Shown here: positions 20,462 through 58,190 of the stretch, piece by piece
How the letters are laid out: the number at the start of each line of letters is the position of its first letter
Position numbering within the stretch: the first letter of the stretch is position 1
Assembly: GCA_963698625.1 (NCBI GenBank)
Contig: CAVORK010000003.1
Coordinates: forward strand, 411,317 to 475,316
From: an uncultured Solirubrobacterales bacterium
GTDB taxonomy: Bacteria > Actinomycetota > Thermoleophilia > Solirubrobacterales > 70-9
Direction: 5' to 3'
DNA length: 64,000 nucleotides
Notes under the pieces: generated by a model
Seen by the model: only the letters and a program-made list of their open reading frames with translations
The model's database searches: none
Told to the model about the DNA's origin: nothing
Translations under genes and position numbers: made by a program

Positions 20462-20709
20462 CAGGAAATAACGATTCACTAAAGGTGGAGATGGGCAGCG
20501 ATTCGGCTCGGGTTGGCGGTGACGCCACAGACGAATCGCCATAGTGGCCCTGAGAACGGGTCGAGCCCAAGACCGTGTCTCCGAGTCTGTTGCCGGCTTT
20601 CCATGTTCATTTCATCGGCAACCGAACACTGGCAAGGATTTACTGAAACAAGCGAGAAAGCAATGAGTCAGGCACAGACTGCCATCGACTCGTGGGGGAT
20701 ACTGAAATT

Positions 20710-26700: not shown

Positions 26701-29700
26701 GACCTGTGTTCTCGGAACTCTCACCTGTACCCGTTCGGACTCCCTGGCCAACGGCGCCAGCTACCCCGATATCACGCTGACCGTTGACGTGGCAAACAAC
26801 GCCCCGGCCAGCGTCACCAACTCCGGCACCGTCTCCGGCGGTGGAGACCCGACGCCGAGCACCGCCAACGACCCGACGACCGTTCTGTCGACCAACCTGG
26901 TCATCAACAAGTCCCACACCGGAGACTTCCTCCAGGGCCAGACCGGCGCGCAGTACACGATCTCGGTCACCAACAACGGCCCCGACGCCTCAACCGGACT
27001 GGTCACGGTCACCGACGCCCTGCCGACCGGCCTCACCGCCACCGGCATCTCCGGTTCCGGCTGGAACTGTGTTCTCGGCACCCTGACTTGTACGCGCAGC
27101 GATTCGCTGGCCAACGGCGCCAGCTACCCCGACATCACGCTGACCGTCGACGTGGCTAACAACGCACCGGCCAGCGTCACCAACTCCGGCACCGTCTCCG
27201 GCGGCGGCGACCCGACACCGAGCACGGACGACGATCCGACCACCATCAAGAGCATCAACCTGGCGATTGCCAAGAGCCACACCGGCAACTTCCGTCAGGG
27301 CCAGACCGGTGCCACCTACATGATCGCCGTGACCAACAACGGCCCCGACGCAACCACCGGTCAGGTCACAGTCACCGACGCCCTGCCGGCCGGCCTCACC
27401 GCCACGGCAATCAGCGGCACCGGCTGGACCTGCAGCCTCGGAACCCTGACCTGTACGCGCAGCGATTCGCTGGCCAACGGCGCCAGCTACCCCGACATCA
27501 ACCTGACCGTCGACGTGGCGAACAACGCCCCGGCCAGCGTCACCAACTCGGCGACCGTCTCCGGCGGCGGCGACCCGACGCCCAGCACGGACGACGATCC
27601 GACCACCGTGCTCTCGACCAACCTGGCCATCAACAAGTCCCACACCGGCGACTTCCTCCAGGGCCAGACCGGCGCGCAGTACACGATCTCGGTCACCAAC
27701 AACGGTCCTGACGCCTCGACCGGCACGGTCACGGTCACCGACGCCCTGCCGACCGGCCTCACCGCCACGGCAATCAGCGGCACCGGCTGGACCTGTGTTC
27801 TCGGCACCCTGACTTGTACGCGCAGCGATTCGCTGGCCAACGGCGCCAGCTACCCCGACATCACCCTGACAGTTGACGTCGCCAACAATGCGCCGGCCAG
27901 CGTCACCAACTCCGGCACCGTCTCCGGCGGAGGAGACCCGACCCCGAGCACGGACGACGATCCGACCACCATCAAGAGCATCAACCTGGCGATTGCCAAG
28001 AGCCACACCGGCAACTTCCGACAGGGACAGACAGGCGCGCAGTACGCGGTGACAGTTACCAACAACGGCCCCGACGCAACTACCGGCCAGGTCTCTGTTA
28101 CCGACAGCCTGCCGACCGGCCTGACCGCCACCGCCATCGCCGGCACCGGCTGGAACTGTGTGCTCGGAACTCTCACATGTACCCGCTCGGATGTCCTGAC
28201 CAACGGTGCCAGCTACCCGAACATCGTCCTGACCGTCGACGTGGCCAACAACGCCCCGGCTTCGGTGACCAACTCCGCGACGGTCACCGGTGGCGGCGAC
28301 CCGACGCCGAGCACCGCCAACGACCCGACGACCGTTCTGTCGACCAACCTGGTCATCAACAAGTCCCACACCGGAGACTTCCTCCAGGGCCAGACCGGCG
28401 CGCAGTACACGATCTCGGTCACCAACAACGGCCCCGACGCCTCAACCGGACTGGTCACGGTCACCGACGCCCTGCCGACCGGCCTCACCGCCACCGGCAT
28501 CTCCGGTTCCGGCTGGAACTGTGTTCTCGGAACACTGACCTGTACCCGCTCGGACTCGCTGGCCAACGGCGCCAGCTACCCGGACATCATCCTGACGGTC
28601 AACGTTGCCAACAACGCCCCTGCCTCGGTTATCAACAGCTCGACCGTAAGCGGCGGCGGCGATCCGACGCCGGCCACCGACAACGACCCGACCACGATCC
28701 GCTCGATCAACCTGGCCATCGACAAGTCTCATACGGGCAACTTCACTCGCGGCCAGACTGGCGCCACCTACACGATTGCCAGTCACCAACAACGGCCCCG
28801 ATGCGACCTCCGGCCTCGTGACTGTGACTGACAACCTGCCCGCCGGCCTGACCGCCACCGCCATCGGCGGCAGCGGTTGGAGCTGCAGCCTCGGCACCCT
28901 GACCTGCACCCGTTCCGACTCCCTCGCCAACGGTGCCAGCTACCCGGACATCACCCTGACGGTCGACGTCGCGTCCAACGCGCCCTCCTCGGTGACCAAC
29001 TCCTCCACAGTCGCGGGCGGTGGAGACCCGACCCCGAGCACCGATGACGATCCGACCACGGTGATCGACCCGGCCACCCCGAACCTGATCATCAACAAGT
29101 CGCATACCGGCGACTTCACCCGCGGCCAGACCGGCGCCACCTACACGCTCGCCGTGACCAACCAGGGACCGGCAGCAACCACCGGCACCGTCACAGTCAC
29201 CGACGCCCTGCCGAGTGGCCTGACCGCCACCGCGATCGCCGGTACCGGCTGGAACTGCACGCTCGGAACGCTGACCTGCACCCGCTCCGACGTCCTGGCC
29301 AACGGCGCCAGCTACCCGGACATCACCTTGACGGTTGACGTAGCGGCGAACGCCCCCGCATCGGTGACCAACACCGGAACGGTCAGCGGCGGCGGCGACC
29401 CGACCCCGGCCAGCGACGACGATCCGACCAATATCCTCACGGCCAACCTGGCCATCGACAAGGCTCACACCGGCAACTTCCGCCAGGGCCAGACCGGCGC
29501 TCAGTACACGCTGGCAGTAACCAACAACGGACCGGCCGCAACCACCGGCACCGTCACGGTCACGGACACCCTGCCGGCTGGCCTCACCGCAACCGCGATC
29601 AACGGAACCGGCTGGAGCTGCGTCCTCGGCACCCTGACCTGCACCCGCTCGGACTCCCTGGCCAACGGCGCCAGCTACCCCGACATCACCCTGACCGTTG

Positions 29701-32700
29701 ACGTGGCAAACAACGCCCCGGCCAGCGTCACCAACTCGGGCACCGTCTCCGGCGGTGGCGACCCGACCCCGAGCACGGACGACGACCCGACCACCGTCCT
29801 GTCGACGAACCTTGCCATCGACAAGTCACACATCGGCGACTTCCGCCAGGGCCAGACCGGCGCGCAGTACACGATCTCGGTCACCAACACCGGCCCCGAT
29901 CCGACTGCTGGTCAGGTTTCGGTCACCGACGCCCTGCCGGCCGGCCTGACCGCAACCGCGATCAACGGCACCGGCTGGACCTGTGTTCTCGGCACCCTGA
30001 CCTGTACCCGCAGCGACGTACTGGCTGCGAACGCCAGCTACCCGAACATCACCCTGACCGTGGACGTGGCGAACAATGCCCCGGCAACTGTGATCCAGAG
30101 CGCGACTGTCTCCGGCGGCGGCGATCCGACGCCGAGCACGGACGACGACCCGACCACCGTCAAGAGCATCAACCTGGCGATCAACAAGTCCCATACCGGC
30201 GACTTCCGCCAGGGCCAGACCGGCGCCACCTACACGCTGGCGGTAACCAATAACGGCCCCGACGCATCGACCGGCACGGTCACAGTCACCGACGCACTGC
30301 CCGCAGGCCTGACCGCCACCGCGATCGCCGGAACCGGCTGGACCTGCACCCTCGGCACACTTACCTGCACCCGTTCGGACTCCCTGGCCAACGGCGCCAG
30401 CTACCCGGACATCAACCTGACCGTCGACGTTGCCAACAACGCGCCGGCTTCAGTGACAAACAGCGGGACCGTCTCAGGCGGCGGCGACCCGACTCCGAGT
30501 ACGGACGACGACCCGACCACTGTGCTCTCAACCAACCTGGCCATCAACAAGTCCCACACCGGCGACTTCCGCCAGGGCCAGACCGGTGCCCAGTACACGC
30601 TGGCCGTGACCAACAACGGCCCCGACGCCTCAACCGGCACGGTCACAGTCACCGACGCACTGCCAGTGGGTCTCACCGCCACCGCAATCAGCGGAACAGG
30701 CTGGACCTGTGTTCTCGGAACGCTGACTTGTACCCGTTCCGACGTCTTGGCCAACGGCGCCAGTTACCCCGACATCACCCTGACCGTCGACGTGGCCAAC
30801 AACGCCCCGGCCAGCGTCACCAACTCGGGCACCGTCTCCGGCGGTGGAGACCCGACCCCGAGCACGGACGACGACCCGACCACCGTGCTCTCGACCAACC
30901 TGGCGATCAGCAAGTCCCACACCGGCGACTTCATCCAGGGCCAGACCGGCGCCACCTACACGCTGGCCGTGACCAACAACGGCCCCGACGCCTCGACCGG
31001 CACCGTCACCGTCACCGACGCACTGCCGGCCGGCCTGACCGCAACCGCGATCAGCGGCAACCGGCTGGACCTGTGTGCTCGGCACCCTGACCTGTACCCG
31101 CTCGGACTCGCTGGCCAACGGCGCCAGCTACCCCGACATCACGCTGACCGTTGACGTCGCCAACAACGCACCGGCCAGCGTCACCAACTCCGGCACCGTC
31201 TCCGGCGGTGGAGACCCGACCCCGAGCACGGACGACGATCCGACCGCGATCAAGAGCATCAACCTGGCGATCGACAAGTCCCACACCGGCAACTTCACAC
31301 AGGGCCAGACCGGCGCGCAGTACACGATTTCGGTCAGCAACACCGGCCCCGATCCGACTGTTGGTCAGGTTTCGGTCACCGATGCCCTGCCAGTAGGCCT
31401 CACCGCCACAGCCATTAACGGCAGCGGCTGGAACTGCACGCTCGGAACCCTGACCTGTACCCGTAGCGACGTACTGGCTGCGAACGCCAGCTACCCGAAC
31501 ATCACGCTGACGGTCAATGTCGCCAACAACGCCGGCAGCCCGCTGGTCAACTCGGCGACCGTTTCCGGCGGCGGCGACCCGACCCCGTCCACCGACGACG
31601 ACCCGACTGTCGTGCGCTCGGTCAACCTCGCAATCGACAAGTCCCACACCGGAGACTTCACGCAGGGCCAGGTCGGGGCCGAGTACACGATTTCGGTCAC
31701 CAACAATGGCCCTGACAGCACGTCAGGCCAGGTCTCTGTCACGGATGCGCTGCCGAGCGGCCTGATCGCAACCGCGATCAACGGCACCGGCTGGAACTGT
31801 GTACTTGGAACGCTGACCTGCACGCGCTCCGACGTCCTGCCGGCCAGCACCAGCTACCCGGATATCACCCTGACTGTGGACGTTGCCAACAACGCGCCGG
31901 CTTCAGTGATCCAGAGCGCGACCGTTTCCGGCGGCGGAGACCCGACCCCGAGCACCGACGACGATCCGACCACGATCAAGAGCATCAACCTGGCGATCAA
32001 CAAGTCGCACACCGGCAACTTCACCCGCGGCCAGACCGGCGCCACCTACACGATTGCCGTCACCAACAACGGCCCCGACGCAACCACCGGTCAGGTCACC
32101 GTCACCGACACCCTGCCGGCAGGCCTGACCGCAACCGCTATCAACGGAACCGGCTGGAGCTGCACGCTCGGAACGCTGACCTGCACCCGCTCGGACTCCC
32201 TGGCCAACGGTGCCAGCTACCCCGACATCACTCTGACCGTCGACGTCGCAGCCAACGCGCCTTCGAGTGTCATCAACTCCGCGACCGCCTCGGGCGGCGG
32301 CGATCCGACCCCGGTCACCGACAACGACCCGACCACGGTGATCGACCCGGCCACGCCGAACCTGATCATCAACAAGTCGCATACCGGCGACTTCACCCGC
32401 GGCCAGACCGGCGCCACGTACACGCTCGCCGTGACCAACAACGGCCCGCCCGCCACCAGCGGCACCGTGACCGTCACCGACACCCTGCCGAGCGGTCTGA
32501 CCGCCACCGCGATTGCCGGAACCGGCTGGAACTGCACGCTCGGAACGCTGACCTGCACCCGCAGCGACTCGCTCGCCGCCGGCAACAGCTACCCGGACAT
32601 CACCTTGACGGTTGACGTAGCGGCGAACGCCCCCGCATCGGTGACGAACACCGGAACGGTCAGCGGCGGCGGCGATCCGACCCCGGACAGCGATGATGAC

Positions 32701-35700
32701 CAGACCAACATTCTCACGGCCAACCTGGCCATCGACAAGGCTCACACCGGCAACTTCCGCCAGGGCCAGACCGGCGCTCAGTACACGCTGGCAGTAACCA
32801 ACAACGGGCCGGCCGCAACCACCGGCACCGTCACGGTCACGGACACCCTGCCGGCTGGCCTGACCGCAACCGCGATCAACGGCACCGGCTGGAACTGCGT
32901 GCTCGGCACCCTGACCTGCACCCGCTCGGACTCCCTGGCGAACGGTGCCAGCTACCCGAACATCGTTCTGACGGTCGACGTCGCCAACAACGCCCCGGCC
33001 AGCGTCACCAACTCCGCCACCGCTTCGGGCGGCGGCGATCCCACTCCGACCACCGATAACGATCCGACCATCATCCTGTCGACCAACCTGGCCATCGACA
33101 AGGCTCACACCGGCGACTTCATCCAGGGTCAGACCGGCGCGCAGTACACGATCTCGGTCACCAACAACGGCCCCGATCCGACCGTCGGACAGGTCTCGGT
33201 CACCGACAACCTGCCGACCGGCCTGACCGCCACCGCGATCAGCGGCACCGGCTGGACCTGTGTTCTCGGAACCCTGACCTGCACGCGCTCCGATGTGCTC
33301 GCCGCCAACGCCAGCTACCCGGACATCACCCTGACTGTGGATGTCGCCAACGACGCGCCGGCAACTGTGATCCAGAGCGCGACCGTCTCCGGCGGTGGCG
33401 ACCCGACCCCGAGCACCGACGACGACCCGACCACGGTCAAGAGCATCAACCTGGCCATCGACAAGTCGCACACCGGCGACTTCCGTCAGGGCCAGACGGG
33501 TGCCCAGTACACGATCTCCGTGACGAACAATGGTCCCGACGCCTCGACCGGCCTCGTGGCGGTCACGGATGCCCTGCCGCCCGGCCTGACCGCCACCGCG
33601 ATCACCGGAACCGGCTGGACCTGCACGCTCGGAACCCTGACCTGCACCCGCTCGGACTCGCTGGCCAACGGCGCCAGCTACCCGAACATCACCCTGACTG
33701 TGAACGTCGCCAACAACGCTCCGGCTTCGGTCATCAACTCCTCCACCGTCAGCGGCGGAGGAGACCCGACTCCGAGTACGGACAACGATCCGACCGTGGT
33801 CCGCTCGATCAACCTCGCGATCAACAAGAGCCATACCGGCAACTTCACCCAGGGCCAGACCGGCGCGCAGTACACGCTCTCGGTCACCAACAACGGCCCC
33901 GATTCCTCGACCGGACTGGTCACAGTCACCGACACCCTGCCGGCCGGCCTCACCGCAACCGCGATCAACGGAACCGGCTGGAGCTGCGTGCTCGCCACCC
34001 TGACCTGCACCCGCTCCGACGTCCTGGCCAACGGCGCCAGCTACCCCGACATCACCCTGACAGTCGACGTCGCCAACAACGCCCCGGCCAGCGTCACCAA
34101 CTCCGGCACCGTCTCCGGCGGCGGCGATCCGACTCCGAGCACCGACGACGATCCGACCACCATTGACACCGACGTCAATCTCGCCATCAACAAGAGCCAT
34201 ACAGGTGACTTCACCCAGGGACAGACCGGTGCCTCGTACACCCTGGCCGTCACCAACAACGGTCCGAGTGCGACAACCGGACTGGTCACAGTCACCGACA
34301 CCCTGCCGGCCGGCCTCACCGCAACCGCGATCAACGGAACCGGTTGGAGCTGCGTGCTCGCCACCCTGACCTGCACCCGCTCCGACGTCCTGGCCAACGG
34401 CGCCAGTTACCCGACGATCACCCTGACCGTCGACGTTGCCAACAACGCCCCGGCGTCAGTCACCAACTCCGGCACAGTCACCGGCGGTGGAGACCCGACC
34501 CCGAGCACAGACGACGACCCGACCACGGTCAAGAGCATCAACCTCGCGATCGACAAGTCCCACACCGGCAACTTCACCCGCGGCCAGACCGGCGCCACCT
34601 ACACAATCGCCGTCACCAACAACGGTCCCGACGCAACCACCGGTCAGGTCACAGTCACCGACACCCTGCCGGCCGGCCTGACCGCAACCGCGATCACCGG
34701 AACCGGCTGGAACTGCACGCTCGGAACACTGACCTGCACCCGCTCGGACTCCCTGGCCAACGGCGCCAGCTACCCGGACATCACGATGACCGTCAACGTC
34801 GCAGCCAACGCTCCGTCGAGCGTCATCAACTCCGCGACGGTCTCCGGCGGCGGCGACCCGACCCCGGCCACCGATAACGATCCGACCACGGTGATCGACC
34901 CGGCCACCCCGAACCTGACGATCAACAAGTCCCACACCGGCAACTTCCGCCAGGGCCAGACCGGAGCCACCTACACGCTGGCCGTGACCAACAACGGCCC
35001 GCCCGCCACCACCGGCACCGTCACAGTCACCGACACCCTGCCGGCCGGCCTCACCGCAACCGCGATCAACGGAACCGGCTGGAGCTGCGTCCTCGGCACC
35101 CTGACCTGCACCCGCTCGGACTCCCTGGCCAACGGCGCCAGCTACCCGCCGATCACCCTGACCGTCGACGTTGCCAACAACGCCCCGGCGTCAGTCACCA
35201 ACTCCGGCACAGTCACCGGAGGCGGCGACCCGACCCCGGATACCTCGGACGACCCGACCACGGTGCTCTCAACCAGCCTGGCGATCAACAAGTCCCATAG
35301 CGGTGACTTCACCCAGGGCCAGACCGGCGCGCACCTACACGCTCTCGGTCACCAACAACGGTCCCGATTCCTCGACCGGACTGGTCACAGTCACCGACAC
35401 CCTGCCGGCAGGCCTCACCGCAACCGCGATCAACGGAACCGGCTGGAACTGCGTGCTCGCAACCCTGACCTGCACCCGCTCCGACGTCCTGGCCAACGGC
35501 GCCAGCTACCCCGACATCACCCTGACCGTCGACGTCGCCAACAACGCCCCGGCTTCAGTCACCAACTCCGGCACAGTCACCGGCGGCGGAGACCCGACCC
35601 CGAGCACCGACGACGACCCGACCACGGTCAAGAGCATCAACCTCGCGATCGACAAGTCCCACACCGGCAACTTCACCCGCGGCCAGACCGGCGCCACCTA

Positions 35701-38700
35701 CACAATCGCCGTCACCAACAACGGTCCCGACGCAACCACCGGTCAGGTCACAGTCACCGACACCCTGCCGGCCGGCCTGACCGCAACCGCGATCACCGGA
35801 ACCGGCTGGAGCTGCACGCTCGGAACACTCACCTGCACCCGCTCGGACTCCCTGGCCAACGGCGCCAGCTACCCGGACATCACGATGACCGTCAACGTCG
35901 CAGCCAACGCTCCGTCGAGCGTCATCAACTCCGCGACGGTCTCCGGCGGCGGCGACCCGACCCCGGCCACCGATAACGATCCGACCACGGTGATCGACCC
36001 GGCCACCCCGAACCTGACGATCAACAAGTCCCACACCGGCAACTTCCGCCAGGGCCAGACCGGCGCCACCTACACGCTGGCGGTGACCAACAACGGCCCG
36101 CCCGCCACCACCGGCACCGTCACCGTCACCGACACCCTGCCGGCAGGCCTCACCGCAACCGCGATCAACGGAACCGGCTGGAGCTGCGTCCTCGGCACCC
36201 TGACCTGCACCCGCTCGGACTCCCTGGCCAACGGCGCCAGCTACCCCGACATCACCCTGACCGTCGACGTCGCCAACAACGCACCGGCCAGCCGTCACCA
36301 ACTCCGGCACAGTTACCGGAGGCGGCGATCCGACCCCGGATACCTCCGACGACCCGACCACGGTGCTCTCGACCAACCTGGCGATCAACAAGTCCCATAC
36401 CGGTGACTTCACCCAGGGCCAGACCGGCGCGCACCTACACGCTCTCGGTCACCAACAACGGCCCCGATTCCTCGACCGGACTGGTCACAGTCACCGACAC
36501 CCTGCCGGCCGGCCTCACCGCCACCGCGATCAACGGAACCGGCTGGAACTGCGTGCTCGGCACACTGACCTGCACCCGCTCCGACTCCCTGGCCAACGGC
36601 GCCAGCTACCCGCGACGATCACCCTGACGGTCGACGTCGCCAACAACGCCCCGGCGTCAGTCACCAACTCCGGCACAGTCACCGGCGGCGGAGACCCGAC
36701 CCCGAGCACCGACGACGACCCGACCACGGTCAAGAGCATCAACCTCGCGATCAACAAGTCCCACACCGGTGACTTCACCCAGGGCCAGACCGGTGCGCAC
36801 GTACACGATCACGGTTTCGAACAACGGGCCGGATTCGACTATCGGCCTCGTCACCGTGACCGACACCCTGCCCGCCGGCCTGACCGCCACCGCGATTGGC
36901 GGAACCGGCTGGAGCTGCACGCTGGCCACACTCACCTGCACCCGCTCCAACTCGCTGGGGATCGGCAACAACTACCCGACGATCACCATGACGGTCGATG
37001 TGGCGGCCAACGCTCCGGCATCGATCATCAACACCGCCACAGTCTCCGGCGGCGGCGATCCGACCCCGGCCACCGATGACGATCCGACGACTGTCATTCC
37101 GACAGCACCCGATGTGAACCTCTCGATCGAGAAGTCACACACCGGCAACTTCACCCAGGGCCAGGTCGGAGCCACCTACACGATCCAGGTCACGAACGAC
37201 GGGCCCGACGCCACCACCGGTCTGGTGACGGTGACGGACAACCTGCCCGCCGGCCTGACCGCGACAGCGATCACCGGAACCGGCTGGAACTGCGTGCTCG
37301 CCACCCTGACCTGCACCCGCTCCAACACCCTCGGCGCGGGCAACGACTACCCGCCGATCACCCTGACTGTGAACGTCGCGGCGAACGCACCGGCATCGGT
37401 CATCCAGCGGGCGACCGTCAGCGGAGGCGGCGATCCGACCGACAGCGAAGATGAGGATCCGACCACGATCGTGCCCACCGGCAGCGACGTCAACCTTGCG
37501 ATCGACAAGTCCCACACCGGCAACTTCACCCAGGGCCAGACCGGAGCCACCTACACGATCCAGGTCAGCAACAACGGACCTGACTCGACGAGCCGGTCAG
37601 GTATCGGTCACCGACTCCCTGCCCGCAGGCCTGACCGCAACCGCCATCGGCGGCAAGGGCTGGAGCTGTGCTCTGGCCACCCTGACCTGCACCCGCTCGA
37701 ACACGCTGGGGACCGGCAACAACTACCCGCCGATCACCCTCACGGTTGACGTGGCAGCCGATGCCCCGGCATCGGTGGTCAACAGCGCCACCGTCTCCGG
37801 CGGTGGCGATCCGACCCCGGCTACCGATAACGATCCGACCACGATCGAGCCCGAAACGCTGGACGTCAACCTCTCGATCGAGAAGTCACACACCGGCGAC
37901 TTCGCCCAGGGCGAGATCGGCGCGACCTACTCGATCGTCGTTTCCAACGACGGCCCCGACGCAACGGCCGGTCTGGTCACCGTGACCGACACCCTGCCGA
38001 CCGGCTTGACCGCGACGGCGATCACCGGTAGCGGTTGGAACTGTGTGCTCGCCACCCTGACCTGCACCCGTTCGAACACGCTCTCGGTCGGCAACGACTA
38101 CCCGACGATCACGCTGACCGTCGATGTTGCCGCTGACGCACCGGCCTCTGTGGTCCAGCGCGCCACTGTCACCGGTGGCGGCGATCCCGACCCGACCCCG
38201 GTAGACGACCCGACCACGATCATCCCCTCGGACCTCACCGCGGACCTGGCGCTGACGAAGTCGGCACCTGCCACCGCGAAGGTCGGAGACCAGTTCGCCT
38301 ACACGATGGTCGTCGAGAACAAGGGTCCGGCCACGGCGACCGATGTCGAGATCGCCGACCCGCTTCCGACGGGGCTCACCTTCGTCTCTTCGGCTGACTG
38401 CAACGCGGTCATGGTCTGCAACCTCGGATCCATTGCGTCGGGCGACAGCAGGACGGTTGAAGTGACCGTCGAAGCCACCGATGTGACAGCCGGCACGACG
38501 GTCGTCAACACGGCGGTTGTCAACGCCGAGGAGTTCGATCCGAACCCCGACGACAACACTGCCACTGCTGAGACCGACATCGATCCGTTGTCCGATCTCA
38601 AGGTGACCAAGACCGGTCCCGCGTCCATCCAGGCCGGCAGCACAATCGGCTGGGAAATCCTGGTTGAAAACGCCGGTCCGAGCGCGGCCGAGGACGTCGA

Positions 38701-39724
38701 AATGGACGACCCGCTGCCCGCCGGACTGACCAACCCCACGGTCACGACCGAACAGGGAACCTGCGATCTCACCGTCAGCTGCTCACTCGGCACGATCCCG
38801 GCGAACGGTTCGGTGCTCGTCCTCATTGAAGCTGACATCCCGGCCGACGCAGTTGTCGGAAGCACGGTCAGCAACACGGTCACGGTGACTACCACCACTG
38901 ATGACAAGGATCCTGATGACAACACGTCTACTTCGACCACGACTGTGTCGCCGCCCACTCCGGGCAAGGCGGAGATCGCGATCACCAAGAAGCTCAGCAA
39001 CCAGAAGGTCACCCTGGGTGACATCGTCACCTTCAAGCTGACCGCCAGAAACAGCGGCGACGCTGCGGCGAAGAACGTCGTGATCAAGGACACCCTGAGC
39101 TCCAAGCTGAAGTACGTCAGCTCGAAGATCCCGGGCGGCAACTGCTCGGTCCAGGGCGCAACCGTCACCTGCAAGGTGTCGAAGCTGGCCGCCGGCAAGT
39201 CAGTGACCGCGACGATCAAAGCGCGGGCGATCGAGCCTGGGCAGGTGGCCAATACCGGCACAATCCAGGCCGACGACAGCAAGATCACGAAGCGCAAGTC
39301 GACTATCAAGTTCCCGGTCGACAAGGGCCAGACGAAGATCGGCATCGTCAAGACCGCCCTACGCAAGAAGACCAGGGATGGCAGCCGGGTCTCGTTCCGT
39401 ATCGAGATCACCAACCTGACCAACCAGGCAGCTACGGATGTCGAGATCTGCGACATCCTGCCGGGCAAGACCACGATCATCCGGTCCAAGGAAGGACGCA
39501 AGATGTCCGGAGGCAAGCTCTGCTGGACAATCGACTACCTGCCCGGTGGAGCCGTGCGGGGTGCATGGGTGACCCTCAGGGTTGACAACTTCACCTCACT
39601 GGATGAGCTGACCAACATCGGAACGGTCACTGCCGGCAATACGAAGGGCAAGAAGAAGTCGTCGGCAAAGGTGAAGCTGGTCCAGCGGACCAGCTCGGCA
39701 CGAGGCGGCGGTGTCACCGGTTAG
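20710..39724 (+). CDS. giant secreted surface protein B (~6330 aa). Order: signal peptide, head type 1, Kelch-like propeller, DUF11 domains, 35 x 121-aa repeats, 4 DUF11 domains (the last two lysine-rich). About 9 frame breaks in this sequence.
   Basis: The ORF opens at 20692. TTG 20710 gives MKSGNRLVVRFTAFIAVLVAVAAFAFGTQSATA, which is residue-for-residue parallel to the gene A N-terminus. ORF pieces 20692..22776, 22697..28831 (2044 aa), 28776..31154, 31075..35976, 35171..36406, 36363..37079, 36769..37749 and 37451..39724 are contiguous in protein sequence. Indels lie at about 22708, 28781, 31060, 35332, 36292, 36432, 36612 (+2), 36798 and 37592. DUF11-like signatures include ..LSVTKSNNPGPLAILRPGDGIQYTMVVENTGTTPATNATLTDLVPAQV... 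Confidence 0.8.
23435..24216 (+). other. Kelch-like six-bladed beta-propeller region within gene B (the equivalent region in gene A is ~14270-15060)
   Basis: Six ~45-aa repeats of the pattern GGAL.TDG..[IV]YAL.G.G...F..Y.....W. Examples: GGALTTDGTYVYALRGDGKPDMYRYDPGTDAWTTMAPLPQNVKD and GGALTTDGTNIYGLQGNGQTVFWKYTVATDTWSTLPATSAQVKE. Confidence 0.65.
25442..38242 (+). repeat. tandem array of 35 x ~363-bp coding repeats (121-125-aa CX6C unit) inside gene B, with higher-order duplications
   Basis: Unit starts are at 25442, 25805, 26168, 26531, 26894, 27257, 27620, 27983, 28346, 28709, 29082, 29445, 29808, 30171, 30534, 30897, 31261, 31624, 31987, 32359, 32722, 33085, 33448, 33811, 34177, 34540, 34912, 35275, 35639, 36011, 36375, 36741, 37117, 37492 and 37868. 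The array ends where ..DLALTKSAP.. begins at 38243. Confidence 0.9.
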
Positions 39725-40445
39725 CAGGATTCTGAGCGCCGCCCTGGTCCTGTCAGCACTCTGGCTGGGCCCGGTCGGCGTGGCTTCAGCCGGCACCACG
39801 GCCAACTACACGGGCGTGACCGGCAAGAGCTCCTGGTCGGCGCGCATCATGATTCGGACGAAGGCCTGGAGCCGGCCGGGCAACCGGGGTCGTGTCCGGA
39901 CGACCCTGCAGACGCAGTCAACCTGGGCCAAGGGTCCCCAGCACCTTCTGGTTCTGAACTCGGCCCAGGTGAAAGGCAGGACCTGGATCAAGGTCCGCCT
40001 GGCCTCCCGGCCCAACGCCGCTTCGGCCTGGATCCCTGCGAACCGCGCCCGGGTGGTCCGGAATCCGTGGCGGGTTCTGATCTCGAGGGGGGACCGCAAG
40101 GTGACTGTTTTCAAGTCGGGCAAGCCGGTGGTCAGGTTCCGGTCCGTTATCGGTGCCCCTGAGACTCCGACGCCCAAGGGTCTCTTCGCGATCTACGAAA
40201 AGGTGAGGCAGGTGCCTTCAAACGGCTTCCTCGGCCCGTTCGCTCTACACCTGACCGCGCATTCGAACGTGCTCGACAATTACGGGGGAGGCCCCGGGCG
40301 GGTCGCAATCCATGGCCGCGACGGCCTGTCCCTGCTCGACCCGCTCGGCACGGCACGTTCCCACGGCTGCATTCGGGTCAACAACAGCAGGATCAGGTTC
40401 CTGGCGAAGAAGCTGCCACTCGGCACCCCGGTGAGGATCCGCTAG
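39711..40445 (+). CDS. secreted L,D-transpeptidase (YkuD domain) with an N-terminal SH3-like region, overlapping the end of gene B
   Basis: GTG at 39711 with GAGG at 39702-39705. It overlaps the gene B stop (39722-39724) by 14 nt. Signal peptide ..ILSAALVLSALWLGPVGVASA. Catalytic motif ..IHGRDGLSLLDPLGTARSHGCIRVNN.. (the SHGC[IV]R signature of YkuD enzymes). Confidence 0.85.
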   Translation: MSPVSRILSAALVLSALWLGPVGVASAGTTANYTGVTGKSSWSARIMIRTKAWSRPGNRGRVRTTLQTQSTWAKGPQHLLVLNSAQVKGRTWIKVRLASRPNAASAWIPANRARVVRNPWRVLISRGDRKVTVFKSGKPVVRFRSVIGAPETPTPKGLFAIYEKVRQVPSNGFLGPFALHLTAHSNVLDNYGGGPGRVAIHGRDGLSLLDPLGTARSHGCIRVNNSRIRFLAKKLPLGTPVRIR

Positions 40446-40516
40446 GCACTGCCGGAGGGCGGTACTCGGCTGGTCCGCGCAATTGGCCGGATTCCTGCCG
40501 TTTCGTCCGAGTCTTG

Positions 40517-40525
40517 CCGATTCAG
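40517..40525 (+). promoter_or_regulatory. conserved CCGATTCAG motif, copy upstream of gene C
   Basis: Exact 9-mer 213 nt upstream of ATG 40738. It is preceded by GAGTCT (40509-40514, an xAxxxT -10-like hexamer) with the same 2-nt gap seen upstream of gene B. Confidence 0.4.
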
Positions 40526-40737
40526 GGAAAATCCCGTACCTTCACTTGATTGGTGAAAAAGGGAGACGGGTGGGAATTCCGTGAGCACCGGCCTCAACGC
40601 CGGGATGGAATCCGCAAAAACGCCCTGAAGACTGCGAATGCTCACCGAGCAGTCATCCTGGCCCCTGAAGGCTTTCCCACTACTTTCGAGAATCCAAGGG
40701 TAATGTTGAGGTCTTTCGGAAGGTTTTGGCGTCTGTG

Positions 40738-43700
40738 ATGTCCAAAAGGAAAATCTCGGAGAACAAATTGAAGTCCGTCGCCCGTACTGCCATCCGTTTC
40801 GCGCCAGTCATTGCGGTTCTCGCCGCTGGCCTGGCGGCGGCTGCTCCCGCTCAGGCGGATCGTGCTTTCAGCTTGCGTTTCTCGGCTACTGAAGCCGGAA
40901 GCATCGGCGGCATCGCCAACAGCAACATGAGCTGCTCCACGGCCAGTGGCGATTTTGGAGCCAGCACCTGTGTGGATGCCCGCAACGCCGCCGTCACTGA
41001 CTCGGTCGACAGCTCTACCAACTGGCGGAACAACAACGCGCACACGATGACTTACGTCGATGTGGATGGCGTGGCTTCAACCTTCAACTCGTCGTCGGCG
41101 AATCAGTCGCTTCCTGCGGGCTCGACGATTCTCTATGCAGCCCTCTATTGGGGAGGGCACTATGCCGGTGCCACCAGCCCCGCCAATCAGAACATTCGCG
41201 ACCAGGTGAAGTTCAGGGTCCCCGGTGCTACGGGCTATCAGACAGTTACTGCTTCCACTGTTGATGACGGGGTCGGCGGCAATGCCGGGCGGTATCAGGC
41301 ATTCGCCAATGTGACCAGTCTGGTGCAAACGCTGCCGAATTCCGGCAACGGGACATACACCGTCGCCGACATTCAGTCTGCGGTCGGTAGCGACCGCTAC
41401 TCGGGATGGAGCCTGATCGTCTCCTACAAGAACCCCTCCGAGACCGTAAAGAACATGACGATCTATGACGGCCTGGTTTCGATTTCAGGAACGACGACGG
41501 CCGACATTCCGATTTCCGGCTTCCTCACTCCGCCAGCCGGTCCGGTCAACGCTGAGGTGGGCTTCGTGGCCTGGGAAGGTGACCTGGCCCTGATCGGTGA
41601 TCGGGCGCAGCTCAATGGTCAGTTCCTGTCTGACGCGCAGCATCCGTCGAACAACTTCTTCAATTCCAGAATCTCCCAGAACGGAGTCCTGTTCACCGAT
41701 CGAAATCCGTCGTACCCGAATTCACTCGGTATGGATGCGCTCCGTACTCCGGCCCCGGCGGGGTCGGTCACCAACTCGCAGACTTCGGCGACGGTGAGGG
41801 TCCGCAGTGACGGTGATTTCTACCTGCCAGGGGTCATCACTTTCCAGGTCGAGGTCTACTCACCGAAGGTTGACCAGCTGAAGTCGGTGGTCGATGACAA
41901 CGGCGGTGTTGTCGAGCAAGGCGACACCCTTACCTACAAGATCTCCGGCAAGAACAATGGCCTGGACGGCACGGCCAACTTCGTGCTGAGAGACCCGATC
42001 CCGCCGAACACGACTTACGTGCCCGGTTCGATCAACGTGGTCAAGAATACGAATGCTTCCACCGGAGTCCGGACTGACGCGTTCGCTGACGACATCGCCG
42101 AGTTCGACTCTCCCAACAACCGGATCATCGCTCGCCTCGGTGAAGGATCAAATGCCTCAACCGGAGGCAACGTCAAGCCAGGCAATGAATACGAGGTGAC
42201 CTTCAAGGTCAAGGTCAATGGACCGAGTCCGAACCCGGTGGCAAACGACACCGTCCTGACCAATACGGCGACCGCAAGCTTCCTGAGCCAGACGACGTCA
42301 AGCCCGCTGAACACAGCTTCGACGGTGGATGCGACCGTCAAGACTCCGGACTTGACGATCAACAAGTCGCATTCCGGAAACTTCCGCCAGGGCCAGACGG
42401 GCGCCCAGTACTCCCTCGCGGTGACCAACCAGGGCCCGGCCGGCACAAACGGCCAGGTCAGCGTCACCGACAACCTGCCGACCGGCCTGACCGCCACCGC
42501 CATTTCCGGCACCGGCTGGAACTGCGTGCTCGCATCTCTGACCTGCACCCGCTCGGACGTCCTGGCCGCCAACGCCAGCTACCCGCCGATCACGATGACC
42601 GTCAATGTGGCCAACAACGCGCCTGCTTCGGTGATCAACAGCGGAACGGTGAGCGGCGGTGGAGACCCCACCCCGAGCACGGCCAACGATCCGACCACCA
42701 TCCTCAGCACCAACCTGGTCATCGACAAGTCCCATACCGGTGACTTCCGCCAGGGACAGACGGGTGCCACCTACACGCTGGCCGTGACCAACAGCGGCCC
42801 GGACCCGACAACCGGAACCGTCACCGTCACCGACGCCCTGCCCGCAGGCCTCACAGCCACCGCGATCAGCGGAACCGGCTGGAACTGCGTGCTCGCAACT
42901 CTGACCTGCACCCGCTCGGACGTCCTGGCAGCCAACGCCAGCTACCCGCCGATCACGATGACCGTCAATGTGGCCAACAACGCGCCGGCATCGGTGATCA
43001 ACGGCGGAACGGTGAGCGGCGGCGGCGATCCGACCCCGAGCACCGACAACGATCCGACCACGATCAAGTCGATCAATCTCGTGATTGCCAAGAGCCATAC
43101 CGGCAACTTCCGCCAGAGCCAGACCGGCGCCCAGTACACGATCGCGGTCACCAATAGCGGACCCGATCCGACCCAGGGCCAGGTCTCAGTCACCGACACC
43201 CTGCCGACCGGCCTGACCGCCACCGCGATCAGCGGCACCGGCTGGAACTGCACGCTCGCAACCCTGACCTGCACCCGCTCGGACGTCCTGGCCGCCAACG
43301 CGAGTTACCCGAACATCACGATGACCGTGAACGTGGCCAACGACGCGCCGGCCAGCGTCGTCAACTCCGGCACCGTTACCGGCGGTGGAGACCCCACCCC
43401 GAGCACGGCCAACGATCCGACCACGATCCTCAGCACCAACCTGGTCATCGACAAGAGTCATAGCGGCAACTTCACCCAGGGCCAGACCGGGGCTCACGTA
43501 CACACTCTCGGTCACCAACAGCGGCCCCGACGCCTCGACCGGCCTCGTGACCGTGACGGACTCGCTGCCGGCCGGTCTGACCGCCACCGCAATAGGCGGC
43601 ACCGGCTGGAACTGCACCCTTGCCACGCTGACCTGCACCCGAAGCGACGCACTGGCCGCCAACGCCAGCTACCCGAACATCACCCTGACCGTCAACGTCG

Positions 43701-46700
43701 CGAACAACGCACCGGCCAACGTTGTCAACTCCGGAACCGTTACCGGCGGCGGAGACCCAACGCCTTCGACCGATGTCGATCCGACCGACATCGGTACCGA
43801 TGTGAATCTGGTCATCAACAAGTCCCACAGCGGCAACTTCCGCCAGGGCCAGACCGGCGCCCAGTACACGATCGCGGTGACCAACAACGGACCGAGCGCC
43901 ACAACCGGACAGGTCTCGGTCACCGATGCGCTTCCCACCGGGCTGACCGCAACTGCGATCAGCGGCACCGGCTGGAACTGCACCCTCGCCACACTCACCT
44001 GCACCCGTAGTGACGTGCTCGCAGGAAACGCCAGCTACCCGACGATCACGATGACCGTGGACGTGGCCAACGACGCCCCGGGCTCGGTTATCAACTCGGC
44101 CGCGGTCTCCGGCGGCGGAGACCCGACCCCGAGCACCGACAACGACCCGACCACGATCCTTTCGACCAACCTGGTCATCGACAAGGCCCACAGCGGCAAC
44201 TTCCGTCAGGGACAGACCGGCGCCCAGTACACACTCTCGGTCACCAGCAACGGCCCCGATGCCTCGACCGGACAGGTCTCGGTCACCGACGCCCTGCCCG
44301 CAGGGCTGACCGCCACCGCCATCTCAGGCTCTGGCTGGAACTGCGTGTTCGCAACCCTGACCTGCACCCGTTCGGACGTCCTGGCCGCCAACGCCAGCTA
44401 CCCACCGATCACGATGACCGTGAATGTGGCCAACAACGCGCCGGCGTCGGTGATCAACAGCGGAACTGTCTCCGGCGGCGGAGACCCGACCCCGAGCACC
44501 GACAACGACCCGACCACCATCCTTTCGACCAACCTGGTCATCGACAAGAGCCACAGCGGCGACTTCACCCAGGGCCAGACCGGGGCTCAGTACACGCTCG
44601 CGGTCACGAACAATGGCCCCGACCCCACCGTCGGCCAGGTCTCGGTCACCGACAACCTGCCGGCCGGTCTCAGCACAACCGCGATCAGCGGCACCGGCTG
44701 GAACTGCACGCTTGCCACGCTCACCTGCACCCGCTCTGACGTGCTCGCGGCAAACGCCAGCTACCCACCGATCACGCTAACCGTCAACGTCGCCAACAAC
44801 GCGCCGTCGTCAGTCATCAACTCCGGCACGGTCAGCGGAGGCGGAGACCCGACCCCGAGCACAGACGACGATCCGACCACGGTCAAGAGCGATCAACCTC
44901 GCGATCAACAAGTCCCACACCGGCAACTTCACCCAAGGCCAGACAGGTGCGACCTACACCCTGCTGGTGACCAATAGCGGCCCTGATGCCACAAACGCGC
45001 CGGTTGCCGTAACTGATGCCCTGCCCTCCGGCCTGACCGCGACCGACATCGCCGGCCCGGGCTGGAACTGCGTGCTCGCAACTCTGACCTGCACCCGAAG
45101 CGACGCCCTCGCGGCCAACGCCAGCTACCCGAACATCACCCTGACCGTCAACGTCGCCAACAACGCACCGGCGAACGTCATCAACTCCGGCACCGTTACC
45201 GGCGGTGGCGACCCGACGCCCAACACCGATGTCGATCCGACCGACATCGGTACTGACGTCAACCTCGCGATCGACAAGTCCCACAGCGGCAACTTCCGTC
45301 AGGGCCAGACCGGCGCCCAGTACACGATCGTCGGTGACCAACAACGGACCGAGCGCCACAACCGGCCAGGTGTCGGTCACCGACGCCCTGCCCACCGGGC
45401 TGACCGCAACTGCGATCAGCGGCACCGGCTGGAACTGCGTTTTCGCAACACTGACCTGCACCCGCAGTGACGTACTGGCTGCCAACGCGAGCTACCCGCC
45501 GATCACGATGACCGTGAACGTCGCGAACAACGCCCCGGCGTCGCTCGTCAATTCGGCGTCAGTTTCAGGCGGCGATGACCCCACCCCGAGCACGGACGTC
45601 GACCCGACCACGGTCCTGTCAACCAACCTGGTCATCAACAAGTCCCATAGCGGCGACTTCCGCCAGGGCCAGACCGGCGCTACTTACACGCTCTCTGTCA
45701 CCAACAGCGGCCCCGACGCCTCGACCGGACAGGTCACAGTCACCGACTCCCTGCCGTCGGGCCTCACCGCGACCAACATCGACGGCCCGGGCTGGAACTG
45801 CGTACTCGCAACCCTGACCTGCACCCGTTCGGACTCGCTGGCCGCCAACGCCAGCTACCCGCCGATCACCCTGACCGTCAACGTCGCCAACAACGCGCCG
45901 TCGTCAGTCACCAACTCCGGCACGGTCAGCGGAGGCGGCGACCCGACCCCCAACACCGATGACGACCCGACCACGATCCGCTCGATCAACCTCGCGATCA
46001 ACAAGTCCCACACCGGCAACTTCACCCAGGGCCAGAGCGGAGCGAGCTACACGATCTCGGTCACCAACAACGGCCCCGACCCCACCGTCGGCCAGGTCTC
46101 GGTCACCGACAACCTGCCGGCCGGTCTCAGCGCAACCGCAATCAGCGGCAGCGGCTGGAACTGCGTGCTGGCCACGCTCACCTGCACCCGGTCGGACTCG
46201 CTGGTCGCCAATGCCAGCTACCCGCCGGTCATCATCACTGTAGATGTCGCAGGCAACGCCCCGGCATCAGTGGTCAACAGCGCCACCGTCACAGGCGGTG
46301 GAGACCCGACGCCGAACACCGACGACGACCCGACCACGATCGAGGAATCGGTGGCCGACGTCGAGATCACCAAGACCGCCAACCCGACCACCGTCTCCTA
46401 CGGCGACACGGTCACCTACACGCTGAAAGCCAAGAACAACGGTCCCGGCAAGGCCAACAACGTCACCATCACCGACCCGCTGCCGTCCGGCGTCAGCTTC
46501 GTATCCGCCGACGCCCCATGCCTCAACGCTTCGGGCACGGTCACCTGCCAGCTTGGAACGCTCCAGCCCGGCGATGAGGTCACGCTTCAGGTCACGGTCA
46601 AGGTCGACCCGGCGGCGCCGAGCGACCCGAACCTCGAGCACCTGCTCGACGTCCAGAAGGCCGAAGCACAGATCGATCTGAATCCCGGCGAGCAGAAGAC

Positions 46701-47904
46701 CGTCTCGGTCACCTGCCCGAGTGGCTACTTTGCCTCCGACGGCTCGGTCCGGATCGACCAGATCGACCACGGAACCGGTGACTGGCCGACGCAGCAGGTA
46801 CTCGAGTCCAGGGCCAGTTCGCTCGACACCTGGCAGGGCACCGTAAAAAACACCGCCACCGGTCGCGCCCAGGCCAAGATCTTCGCCGTCTGCATCAAGC
46901 AGACGACCAACCAGATCGACGGACACACCCATGATCTGATCGTCTCGGCACCGGTTACGGTCACCGCGGCGGTTCCTGCCGGCCTCCACGAGGAGACCCT
47001 CGCCTGCCCCGCAGGTACGGTTGCGATCCAGCCCGGCTTCAGCTCGACCGCTCCCGCCGACCTCGTCTACAGCGAGCCTGAAGGCAGCGGCTGGAAGTTC
47101 AGGCTTGACGTGAGCGCCGATGCCGACGTCACCTTCTCGATCCGCTGCATGTCGAGGCAGACCACCTCAAGCAGCGGCCACGACCATAACCTCGATCTAC
47201 AGCACATCGTTGCCGAGGTCACGGTCGAAGGCATGACCGTCAACGAGGCCCAGCTCACCTGCTCCGATGGCTACAAGGGCATCGTCGCCGACATGGACCT
47301 CGACCCCGGACTGGTCAGCCTCGGTAGCGACCCGCGTCCGGTGACCAGGGCCTTCAAGCTCTACAACCCGACCATGGGCCCGCTCAAGGCACGCATCAGC
47401 CTGCTTTGCCTGGGCAACATGACGAGCGGCCACAACATCGGTCCGGTTCAGATCGTCAATACCGCCTACATCACGACCACCTCCAACGACGAGACCCCGG
47501 CCAACAACCAGTCCTCGGCGACCATCACGGTGAACGCCACCGGCACCAACAACCCGATTCCGAACCCGGACCCGGACAAGCCGGTCGTCAACAACCCGAT
47601 CGGCATGAGCATCGGCGGAAGCGATGTTGCCCTGCGTGGCAACCGCGCCCTGGTGACGGTGAACTGCTCAGGTGCCTGCTCCGGCAAGGCCAGGCTGTTC
47701 TCAGCCAGGACGGTCAAGGTCGGCAAGAAGAAGGTCGGCAAGGGCACTCTGCTCGCCAAAGGCACCTTCCGCTTCAACTCGGCCGGCAAGCGCAAGCTGA
47801 AGCTGAAGGTCAACCGGACCGGTCGCAAGGTCCTGAGCAGAGGCGGCAAGGCCCTGCTCAAGCTCTCCTCGGGAGAGAAGAAGCTGGTGCGCATCAAGCG
47901 CTGA
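40738..47904 (+). CDS. giant secreted surface protein C (~2385 aa). Order: signal peptide, head type 2, DUF11 domain, 11 x 121-aa repeats, shared C-terminal module. About 3 frame breaks.
   Basis: ATG at 40738 (the ORF track opens at TTG 40726). Signal peptide ..ARTAIRFAPVIAVLAAGLAAAAPAQA. ORF pieces 40726..44010, 43385..44977, 44967..45470 and 45205..47904 are contiguous in protein sequence, with indels at about 43495, 44891 and 45330. The C-terminal 515 aa are closely similar to the end of gene A. Confidence 0.8.
42349..46356 (+). repeat. tandem array of 11 x 363-bp coding repeats (121-aa CX6C unit) inside gene C
   Basis: Unit starts are at 42349, 42712, 43075, 43438, 43805, 44168, 44531, 44895, 45261, 45625 and 45988. 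Spacing is 363 bp, or 364-367 where there are indels or a 1-aa longer linker. Confidence 0.9.
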
Positions 47905-51100: not shown

Positions 51101-54100
51101 AACACGAGCAACAACGCCAACCGTCGCGGTCAAAGCCGGACCAACCAGGCCACGGTCAGCTGGACCGACGGAATCCCTTACAGCGCCGACTCGAATCAGG
51201 TGTCGACGACTATTGTCGAGCCGCTCATCTCCCAGAGCAAGACGAACTCGGTCCAGCCAGGCTCGGCCCTGCCCGGAGATACCGTCACCTACACGCTGGT
51301 CACCAGGAACTCCGGTTCTTCCAACGTCAGCATCGCTCACGACACGGTGATTCGCGACGTCGTACCCGTCGGAATGACGCCGGTCGATGCCGGTGGCAGT
51401 CCGCTGGCTGACGGAGTCCTCGTACCCGGAACCGGGGGCTCAACCTGGAACCTCGGCGAGCCGTACGATCACCTCACCGGCGGTTGACATCAATCCCGGT
51501 GCCAACGTGACCTGGAGCTACAAGGCGAAGATCGACAGCCCCGCCATCGCGGGCGCCAGCCTGGTCAACACGGCTGATGCGAAGACGACGTCGATCAGCG
51601 GCAGTGATCCGAACGAGCGCACCTCCGCCAGCCCATACAACACCGGTTACGTCGCGTCCTCGAGCAGCGCCGTGAAAGTCACCGGGGCAACGGTGGCCAA
51701 AGCGGTCGACCCGGCCTGGGCCACAATCGGCACGCCGCTGACCTACACGGTCGACCTGACCATCCCGAAGAATCTGACCATGTTCGACCTGACCGCGGTC
51801 GACACACTGCCGGACTCGCTCGACTTCGACAGTTACACCTCGGCGACCTGTGTTTCCGGCTGCCCGGCCAACCCCGCCCCGACAGTTCAGACCTACGACC
51901 CGGTGATCACGCCTTCGTCGACCACGATCGCCTGGGACCTCGGCAACATCACGCCGGGTACCACCGACCGCGTCATCCGCTTCACCTTCAGGGCGCATGT
52001 GCGTGACACGTACCGCTCCAGTGGTGCCAAGGTCAAGGCCGGGGACAACATCGTCAACGTGGTGCGCGCCCAGTCGAACCTGAGCGACAAGTTCACCTTC
52101 AACCCCGCCAGCCTGCCTGCCGTCAACACCTTTGACTACGTATCGCCGAACGCGACCGTGAGCACCCCGGTTCGCGAGCCGAACATCGCGCTCGACAAGA
52201 AGGTGAAGGTCAACTCCGGTTCCTTCGTGGACGGGCCGGTTCAGAGCCAGCCCGGCGACACGCTGACCTACAGCCTCGCCGTGAAGAACAACGGCTCCAG
52301 CGCCGCCTATGACATGGTCGTGACCGACAAGCCAGATACGAAGATCACGAACGTGGTTCTCGCTCAGGGCGCAGCTTTCAACACTGACGGATGGACCCAG
52401 GCCGACCCGACCATGAAGTGGACCATCCCCGGTCCGATCGCGCCCGGTGAGACGGTGACCCTGACCTACACCGCCGAGCCGCTGCCCTCAGCCCAGCTTC
52501 AGGCCGGCGACAGGGCGATCAACACCGCCGGCTCAAATTACTGGGGCCTGCCGTCTTCCGAGCGGAGCAACCCGTGGACCTACCGCAACTACGACAGCAA
52601 CAACGACACCGTGCGTGTCAACTTCGACTTCCCGGAGATCTCGGTCAACAAGACGACCACGGCCCCGGGTTTCCCGGACATCGCCGATGCTCCGGTGCTG
52701 CAGCCCTTCGGCTGGAGGATCGTCGTCAGGAACAACGCGACCACCGCCAGGGCGCTCGACACCGTGGTCAAGGACACTCTGCCGCCGGCATGGACCTATG
52801 ACGCCGGTTCGACCGCGATCACCGGAGCCGTCACCGCCGAGCCATCCGTCGTGACCAACCCGGCCGGCGACGCGCTGACCTGGGACTTCACAGGTCAGAC
52901 GATCCAGCCTGGTGCCAGCGTGACGATCACCTTCACTGCCACCCCGCAGCTCGCTGCGCGCCTGAACCCGCCGGTCCAGGTCAACGACGCGCACGCCGAC
53001 GCCAGGGACGCCAGCGGTAGCGACCGCAACCTCGACGGCCCCTACACCGACGAAGACGACGCCAGGGCGACACTGAAATTCCCGAAGAACGACCTCGAGA
53101 TCGACAAGAGCGCCCCGGCGGTCGTCGAGTCGCAGGCGACCTTCGACTACACGATGAAGGTGACCAACAACGGACCTGACCCTGCGACCGGCGTGGTCAT
53201 CAACGACCCGCTGCCCGCCGGCCTGACCTTCATCAGCTCCGGCGACTGCAGCCCGGCCATGGTCTGCAACCTCGGATCGCTCGCAGTCGGGGCCAGCAAG
53301 ACCGTCACCGCTCAGGTCAAGGCGACTTACGCCGTTGCCGGCACGATCGTGGTCAACACCGCGGTGGTCACCGGCAACGAGTTCGAGACCAACATCGACA
53401 ACAACACCGACACGGTCGAGACCAAGGTTCTCGGCGAGCCCGATGTCAAGATCACCAAGACCGCGATGCCGACCAACCCGCGTCCGGGCGACATCATCAC
53501 CTACAGGCTCAAGGCCGAGAACGTCGGTACCGCGATCGCCGAGAACGTGGTCGTCACCGACACCCTCCCGGTCGGAGTCACCTTCGTCTCCGCCGACTCG
53601 CCCTGTGTCGAGAACGCCGGCAACATCAGCTGTGAGACTCGGCTCGATGACCCCGGGTGACGTGATCTGGCTCGAAGTCAAGGTCAAGGTCGACACCTGG
53701 GGCAACGCCAACACCGACGGCCGACCACCTGATCGACGTCCAGAAGGTCGAAGCACAGATCGACCTCGAAGCCGGAGAACAGAAGACCGTCTCGGTCACC
53801 TGCCCGTCCGGATACTTCGTCTCCGACGGCTCGGTCCGGATCGACCACATCGATCAGGGCACCGGCGACTGGACCGCGCCGCAGGTTCTCGAATCGCGGG
53901 CATCGAGCCTCGATACCTGGCAGGGAACCGTGAAGAACACCGCCACGGGCCGCGCCCAGGCCAAGATCTTCGCGGTCTGCATCTCGAAGAAGACGGTCGA
54001 TGTACGACGACCACAGCCACGACCTGATCACGAGCGACCAGATCTTCGTCAATCACGAAGCCCTAGCCGGCAAGGACGAGGCTACGCTCCAGTGCGGACC

Positions 54101-54995: not shown

Positions 54996-55020
54996 CCATC
55001 TGCGTCACATTCAGTTTGGA

Positions 55021-55051
55021 AGAGCCCCGGACTTCCGGGGCTCTTTCATTT
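55021..55051 (+). terminator. strong rho-independent terminator closing the giant-gene locus
   Basis: AGAGCCCCGG (55021-55030), loop ACTT, CCGGGGCTCT (55035-55044): a perfect 10-bp stem followed by TTCATTT. Confidence 0.8.
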
Positions 55052-55079
55052 CCGGATGTCGGACCGGAGCGGTCGGGGG

Positions 55080-55739: not shown

Positions 55740-55757
55740 ACCGGTGGCAGGCGTTGC

Positions 55758-57180: not shown

Positions 57181-57265
57181 CCAGCATCTCCTGAGATTCT
57201 CTTCGCTCTTTTTCTTTCCGGGTCAGTATCGCAGCTTGACGCTCTGCGTCGGCACTGCAGGCCGT

Positions 57266-58190
<925 letters not shown>

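Follow-up and report, generated by a model that had tools for sequence, protein, structure and literature searches.

A YkuD-family L,D-transpeptidase paired with secreted proteins ending in Thr-Gly: a possible sortase-like wall-anchoring route in Thermoleophilia

Introduction

In the sortase A/LPXTG system, a dedicated Cys transpeptidase acts on a C-terminal Thr-Gly signal carried by secreted surface proteins, cleaving the Thr-Gly bond to give a Thr-acyl-enzyme from which the protein is passed to a peptidoglycan amine. Proteins are also attached to peptidoglycan by YkuD-family L,D-transpeptidases (LDTs): LdtA, LdtB and LdtC of E. coli (ErfK/YbiS/YcfS) attach Lpp to stem peptides, as Ldt03 and Ldt84 of D. 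dadantii do with OutB (PMC12274547), and LDTs of Brucella, Agrobacterium and Coxiella attach β-barrel outer-membrane proteins (OMPs) through the N-terminal amine and LimB through an internal Lys, with specialised LDT paralogs for each substrate class (reviewed in PMC12729407). In every described case, whether Lpp, OutB, the OMPs of Brucella, Agrobacterium and Coxiella, or LimB, it is the protein that supplies the accepting amine (PMC12274547, PMC12729407). A paired processing enzyme and a short C-terminal signal, found by co-occurrence, also define the rhombosortase/GlyGly-CTERM, exosortase/PEP-CTERM, archaeosortase/PGF-CTERM and myxosortase/MYXO-CTERM systems, in which the motif is followed by a transmembrane (TM) helix and a basic tail and the processing is done by membrane proteases from other families.

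The locus described here, in which the gene for a secreted LDT adjoins that of a giant adhesin (gene B), has in common with the sortase A system a dedicated Cys transpeptidase, a C-terminal Thr-Gly signal on secreted surface proteins and, in the mechanism that we propose, Thr-Gly cleavage with transfer from a Thr-acyl-enzyme to a peptidoglycan amine; the xPVTG ending found among the partner proteins resembles LPXTG at P-3, T-1 and G0. It differs in that the enzyme is an LDT of the YkuD fold in a genome without sortase, in that the motif forms the extreme end of the protein and is followed by neither a hydrophobic TM segment nor a basic tail, and in that the genes for the enzyme and its putative substrate adjoin each other and are translationally coupled. 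Dedicated LDTs that anchor specific envelope proteins are likewise a feature of Brucella, Agrobacterium and Coxiella, but these are Proteobacteria, and their substrates are outer-membrane proteins that serve as acceptors through an N-terminal or Lys amine; Lpp and OutB are also acceptors, through the ε-amine of a C-terminal Lys, in Gram-negative diderms. Here, by contrast, the C-terminus is Thr-Gly, the cell is apparently monoderm, and the partners are secreted surface adhesins, unlike the outer-membrane substrates of the Lpp/OutB/OMP type; neither that type's amine-acceptor substrate nor its outer-membrane substrate is seen. From the CTERM systems (GlyGly, PEP, PGF, MYXO and JDVT) the locus is set apart by the lack of a TM segment after the motif and by its paired enzyme, an LDT. 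The literature searched described no pairing of an LDT with a sorting motif at the C-terminus and contained no work on sortase in Thermoleophilia, and the view of a preliminary description of this DNA, that such an anchoring route is undescribed, agrees with the lack of a published precedent there. By its enzyme family the locus belongs with the YkuD LDTs that attach proteins, and it could prove to be a route with a new mechanism, should the donor chemistry be confirmed.

Results

The host genome lacks sortase and Omp85/BamA

The window, that is, the whole 64,000-nucleotide stretch analysed, spans positions 411317-475316 of contig C3 of a genome of 8 contigs and 2.44 Mb that is 89.5% complete; coordinates below are window positions on the forward strand unless stated otherwise. 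Its GC content is ~65%, dipping to 0.605-0.635 around the LDT gene (38000-42000) as against ~0.65-0.69 elsewhere in the window. The cumulative GC skew stops falling at ~54000-58000 and is slightly positive beyond ~55 kb, a hint that the direction of replication changes close to the window end. The reverse strand at 2223-6179 encodes a 2-oxoglutarate dehydrogenase of the OdhA type, in which the E2 and E1 domains are fused; such enzymes are typical of Actinomycetota. The nearest named relatives of the LDT are from Thermoleophilia (Gaiella, Thermoleophilaceae, Solirubrobacteraceae) and from Acidimicrobiales metagenome-assembled genomes (MAGs). A search of sequencing runs for the window genome returned only relatives, which came from soil and sediment metagenomes and shared at most 16% of the sampled words.

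A genome-wide search found no sortase (PF04203) in the window genome, and Omp85/BamA is likewise absent from it. Because the window genome has no Omp85/BamA, the cell is probably monoderm, with peptidoglycan as its outermost layer, and the lack of both proteins makes sortase-independent anchoring to peptidoglycan a reasonable hypothesis. That part of the preliminary description stands, whereas the mechanism that it offered, attachment through a lysine-rich foot, finds no support (see below). Among same-genus genomes, sortase was found in 1 of 36, and it was not found in the genomes searched from one other family (f5); in three further families (f2-f4) it is present alongside partnered LDTs.

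A secreted L,D-transpeptidase overlaps the end of a giant adhesin gene

The LDT gene (39711-40445, GTG start; ORF, Pfam and model) encodes 244 residues and, by its sequence, a secreted YkuD-family enzyme with intact catalytic residues. Alignment, Pfam and the model place a Sec signal peptide at residues 1-27 (MSPVSRILSAALVLSALWLGPVGVASA), a β domain at ~41-120 and the YkuD catalytic domain at 121-243 (PF03734, E=4.6e-19). The catalytic His and Cys of the H...SxGCxR motif are intact (...HGRD...SHGCIRVNN), with His201 encoded at 40311-40313 and Cys220 at 40368-40370, and both residues are unchanged in 30 of 30 LDT homologs (alignment A2); in the same alignment W92, R100 and W107 of the β domain, which is SH3b-like, are invariant in the subfamily. 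An AlphaFold model (pLDDT 86, pTM 0.81) confirms the predicted YkuD fold, the closest PDB structures being B. subtilis YkuD and mycobacterial LDTs, including the M. tuberculosis Ldts.

The start of the LDT gene overlaps the end of gene B by 14 nt. The TAG stop of gene B lies at 39722-39724, the codons of its C-terminal GGGVTG together with the stop occupy 39704-39724, and a Shine-Dalgarno-like GAGG for the LDT GTG (39702-39705) falls within its final codons. The LDT reading frame, its GTG, the GAGG, the overlap and the SHGCIRVNN motif had all been reported in the preliminary description, and each is present in the sequence. Gene overlaps of such length are common in bacteria; what carries this case beyond chance is that the pairing with a C-terminal motif is kept across genomes. 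The C-terminus of gene B reads ...KVKLVQRTSSARGGGVTG (ending ...ARGGGVTG), as had been quoted, and has no LPXTG, no hydrophobic C-terminal TM helix and no known CTERM signal (NCBIfam). The region that precedes it (39362-39703), consisting of a diverged DUF11/Ig-like domain and a basic linker, is conserved in same-genus partner proteins (alignment A1).

Coupling of the LDT to the largest surface protein of the locus, as described earlier, holds with one correction: the ORF labelled gene B (37451-39724) encodes 757 aa and is just the final piece of a ~19-kb DUF11-repeat gene that begins at 20692. In full (20692-39724; ORFs and Pfam), gene B encodes a giant secreted DUF11/CARDB-repeat adhesin with an N-terminal Sec signal peptide, and +1 frame breaks within near-identical repeats divide it into 8 or more ORFs; its product would be ~6,300 aa long if the breaks are errors. 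The breaks are single-base indels between repeat units (for example, GCCAG-CGTC versus GCCAGCCGTC near 31110), and may be repeat-assembly errors, or real frameshifts or pseudogenes. Altogether the locus, at 12-54 kb of the window, encodes four giant DUF11 proteins (A-D), and genes C (40726-47904) and D (48102 to ~54000) are similarly split by +1 frame breaks. Genes A (end at ~18857-20398) and C (end at 45205-47904) share a polybasic C-terminal domain of ~70 aa (...KLFSARTVKVGKKKV...KKLVR[V/I][R/K]R) that carries no xTG motif and is unlike the end of gene B.

LDTs of this subfamily are paired with Thr-Gly-ending proteins across genomes

The loci compared were 11 from genome contigs, 30 from 61 LDT relatives and 14 wider upstream loci, covering the window genome, 35 same-genus MAGs, other families of the order, Gaiella, Thermoleophilaceae, Solirubrobacterales and Acidimicrobiales; the 41 LDTs counted are the subfamily in Thermoleophilia-like genomes and Acidimicrobiales. 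At 27 of these 41 LDTs, we found a secreted neighbour ending in [P/G/T]-[V/F]-T-G-COOH, mostly directly upstream and either overlapping or no more than 30 nt away (in most loci 10-29 nt separate the partner stop from the start of the LDT gene that follows), and once downstream. Genes ending in [VFIL]TG make up 0.37% of those in the window genome; with a chance rate of 0.75% in the partner test and both neighbours counted, 0.3 partnered LDTs would be expected against the 27 of 41 observed (P≈1e-47), and the pairing keeps P≈1e-17 if only 8 lineages are taken as independent. In our judgement the pairing is almost certainly both real and functional. The functional tie between the LDT and gene B put forward in the preliminary description is borne out to this extent, the same arrangement recurring in about two-thirds of the LDT subfamily and in several families, and the adjacency is not peculiar to the window genome.

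The window genome itself contains three partner-LDT pairs. In addition to the pair in the window, there is one on contig C7 at ~1.097 Mb, whose partner ends ...GGGGNTPVTG and overlaps its LDT by 32 nt, and one on contig C2 (~26.3-27.7 kb), whose partner ends ...RINNSARGGGVTG; the LDT of the C2 pair is degraded, with Cys replaced by Arg (SHGRIR) and its upstream part garbled, and from its sequence this pair looks like a decaying copy. None of the other five [VFIL]TG-ending ORFs of the window genome adjoins an LDT. A reverse-strand ORF elsewhere on contig C3 (G000:C3:398799-399959) ends ...FQNVLTG, has an LVAC lipobox-like sequence and no adjoining LDT; its predicted product is a probable lipoprotein and a candidate in-trans substrate.

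About one-third of the subfamily LDTs lack a neighbouring partner gene. Partner status is scattered on the LDT tree, with 11 changes where 14.4 are expected, which fits an old association followed by several losses. Compared residue by residue, partnered and unpartnered LDTs showed no positions specific to either group, and for this reason LDTs of the subfamily may also perform ordinary 3-3 cross-linking. Distant LDT homologs, from families elsewhere in the class and phylum, lacked a partner at 19 of 20 loci, which points to a system confined to particular lineages; the TG motif does occur in one distant family (locus L074). At an Acidimicrobiales locus (L006), two tandem small acidic-repeat partners (1101-1787 and 1808-2665) precede a single LDT, suggesting that one LDT can serve several substrates.

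The partners are unrelated secreted proteins with a common C-terminal motif

All of the partners are secreted proteins with Sec signal peptides, and they are otherwise unrelated. Those of the same genus are giant DUF11/VWA/CARDB/TRAP-β adhesins with a common C-terminal DUF11-like domain and basic linker, those of other families of the order include ice-binding-like proteins (PF11999) ending ...RFRxCAA...[VF]TG, and partners of 80-290 aa carry acidic (T/S)EDDPxE repeats and end ...DDPIEGSPLFTG (Acidimicrobiales), ...DANFTG or ...RKSANFTG; Pfam assigned no domain to the small partners of the Acidimicrobiales type. The topology is that of sortase substrates: a Sec signal peptide opens the protein, adhesin or ice-binding domains follow, and the protein closes with a C-terminal signal.

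At the partner C-termini only the final Thr and Gly are invariant, with Val or Phe at position -2 (alignment A1); the endings are xPVTG, GGVTG and GFTG, always at the extreme C-terminus with nothing after them, and no NCBIfam CTERM model matches the tail. The Thr and Gly codons differ synonymously between loci while the residues are fixed, which indicates selection at the protein level. We considered whether the motif might reflect a DNA-level constraint imposed by the ribosome-binding site of the LDT, and rejected this both because the motif codons lie outside the Shine-Dalgarno region in most loci and because of the synonymous codon variation.

Discussion

A proposed donor reaction

The invariant C-terminal Thr-Gly has no free amine, and we infer from this, as the most economical reading, that the protein would be the acyl donor. 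In general, LDTs cleave the last peptide bond of their donor (DAP3-D-Ala4) and accept Gly at position 4. We suggest that the secreted LDT would use Cys220 to attack the carbonyl of the penultimate Thr in ...[PG][VF]-T-G-COOH, releasing the terminal Gly, which would stand in for D-Ala4 of the tetrapeptide donor, and forming a Thr-thioester acyl-enzyme on Cys220. [quoted passage not shown] Translational coupling of the two genes would supply the LDT and its substrate in roughly equal amounts, about one enzyme for each substrate. Donor cleavage and acyl-enzyme formation by LDTs have been described (reviewed in PMC12729407).

The donor reading is drawn from comparative evidence throughout. A Thr-terminated protein as LDT donor is, to our knowledge, unprecedented, no LDT being known to use one, and gene B itself may be broken, in which case its frame breaks would weigh against the reading. 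On balance, whether gene B and the LDT are a dedicated substrate-enzyme pair, among numerous such pairs in the lineage, that anchors the protein covalently to peptidoglycan, in the manner of a sortase, appears to us an evenly poised question on the sequence comparisons. The broader proposal, that LDTs act as 'sortases' on proteins serving as acyl donors with a [PG][VF]TG tail, in an undescribed sorting system of monoderm Actinomycetota that lack sortase (Thermoleophilia and some Acidimicrobiia), is tentative, with a likelihood that falls just short of even.

Alternative roles for the LDT

The extreme C-terminal position of the motif also bears on whether the protein is joined covalently to the wall at all. 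The LDT could bind the tail, possibly by means of its SH3b-like N-terminal domain, and remodel or cross-link the peptidoglycan beneath the adhesin, with the protein being held non-covalently or by other means. The conserved tail motif, the extra β-domain of the LDT and the tight gene coupling are all compatible with such an arrangement, but holding a protein in this way needs no invariant Thr-Gly carboxyl end, and a motif placed exactly at the C-terminus is typical of cleavage sites; we consider this explanation unlikely. A complex prediction between LDT residues 28-244 (A2) and the partner C-terminal region (A1) gave a score of 0.01, which was counted neither way.

The mechanism favoured in the preliminary description was an Lpp-like one, in which the protein is the acceptor and the LDT links a Lys ε-amine in the basic foot of gene B, and those in the polybasic tails of A, C and D, to stem peptides. 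Known LDTs do attach proteins through Lys ε-amines (Lpp, OutB and, at an internal Lys, Coxiella LimB), and K/R-rich linkers stand just before the motif in gene B and in the same-genus partners. However, the lysines are not conserved among the partners, and the last 60 residues of the ice-binding partners L051 and L055 contain no lysine; moreover, the residues that are conserved, the terminal Thr and Gly, offer no free amine and cannot be the acceptor. Neither do the other giant proteins of the locus conform, with A and C ending in a different polybasic domain that lacks the motif and D not indicated as a substrate. A Lys acceptor thus seems quite improbable, and the proposal that A, C and D are substrates is not supported.

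If the donor reaction does begin as we propose, the acyl-enzyme could also be hydrolysed, the LDT then acting as a C-terminal L,D-carboxypeptidase that trims Gly to mature or release the protein without anchoring it. LDTs are able to hydrolyse their own acyl-enzyme (L,D-carboxypeptidase activity; PMC12729407), but transpeptidation to peptidoglycan is its usual fate, and we see no reason for dedicated trimming across such diverse substrates; processing alone is very improbable. Least probable of all is a pilus-like polymerisation, in which the LDT would join the Thr of one subunit to a Lys amine of another as pilus-specific sortase C does, for although some partners contain pilin-like SpaA/prealbumin-like and RrgB-type isopeptide Ig domains, many of the candidate substrates are either small single proteins (~80-290 aa) or ice-binding proteins that lack a pilin motif, and no pilin-motif lysine is conserved.

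Implications for wall anchoring

If the donor reading of the LDT/partner pairs is correct, they would represent a third route of wall anchoring besides sortase and tethering of the LDT-Lpp type, and its chemistry would be the reverse of that in every known LDT-protein attachment. Whether LDTs can perform sortase-like chemistry is a long-standing question that is now directly testable. The partner tail would add a C-terminal sorting signal, of a 'TG-CTERM'-like kind, that current annotation overlooks, and anchoring would be open to drug inhibition through the carbapenem sensitivity of LDTs. For the organisms themselves, such a system would account for the surface display of giant adhesins and ice-binding proteins by monoderm Actinomycetota that lack sortase.
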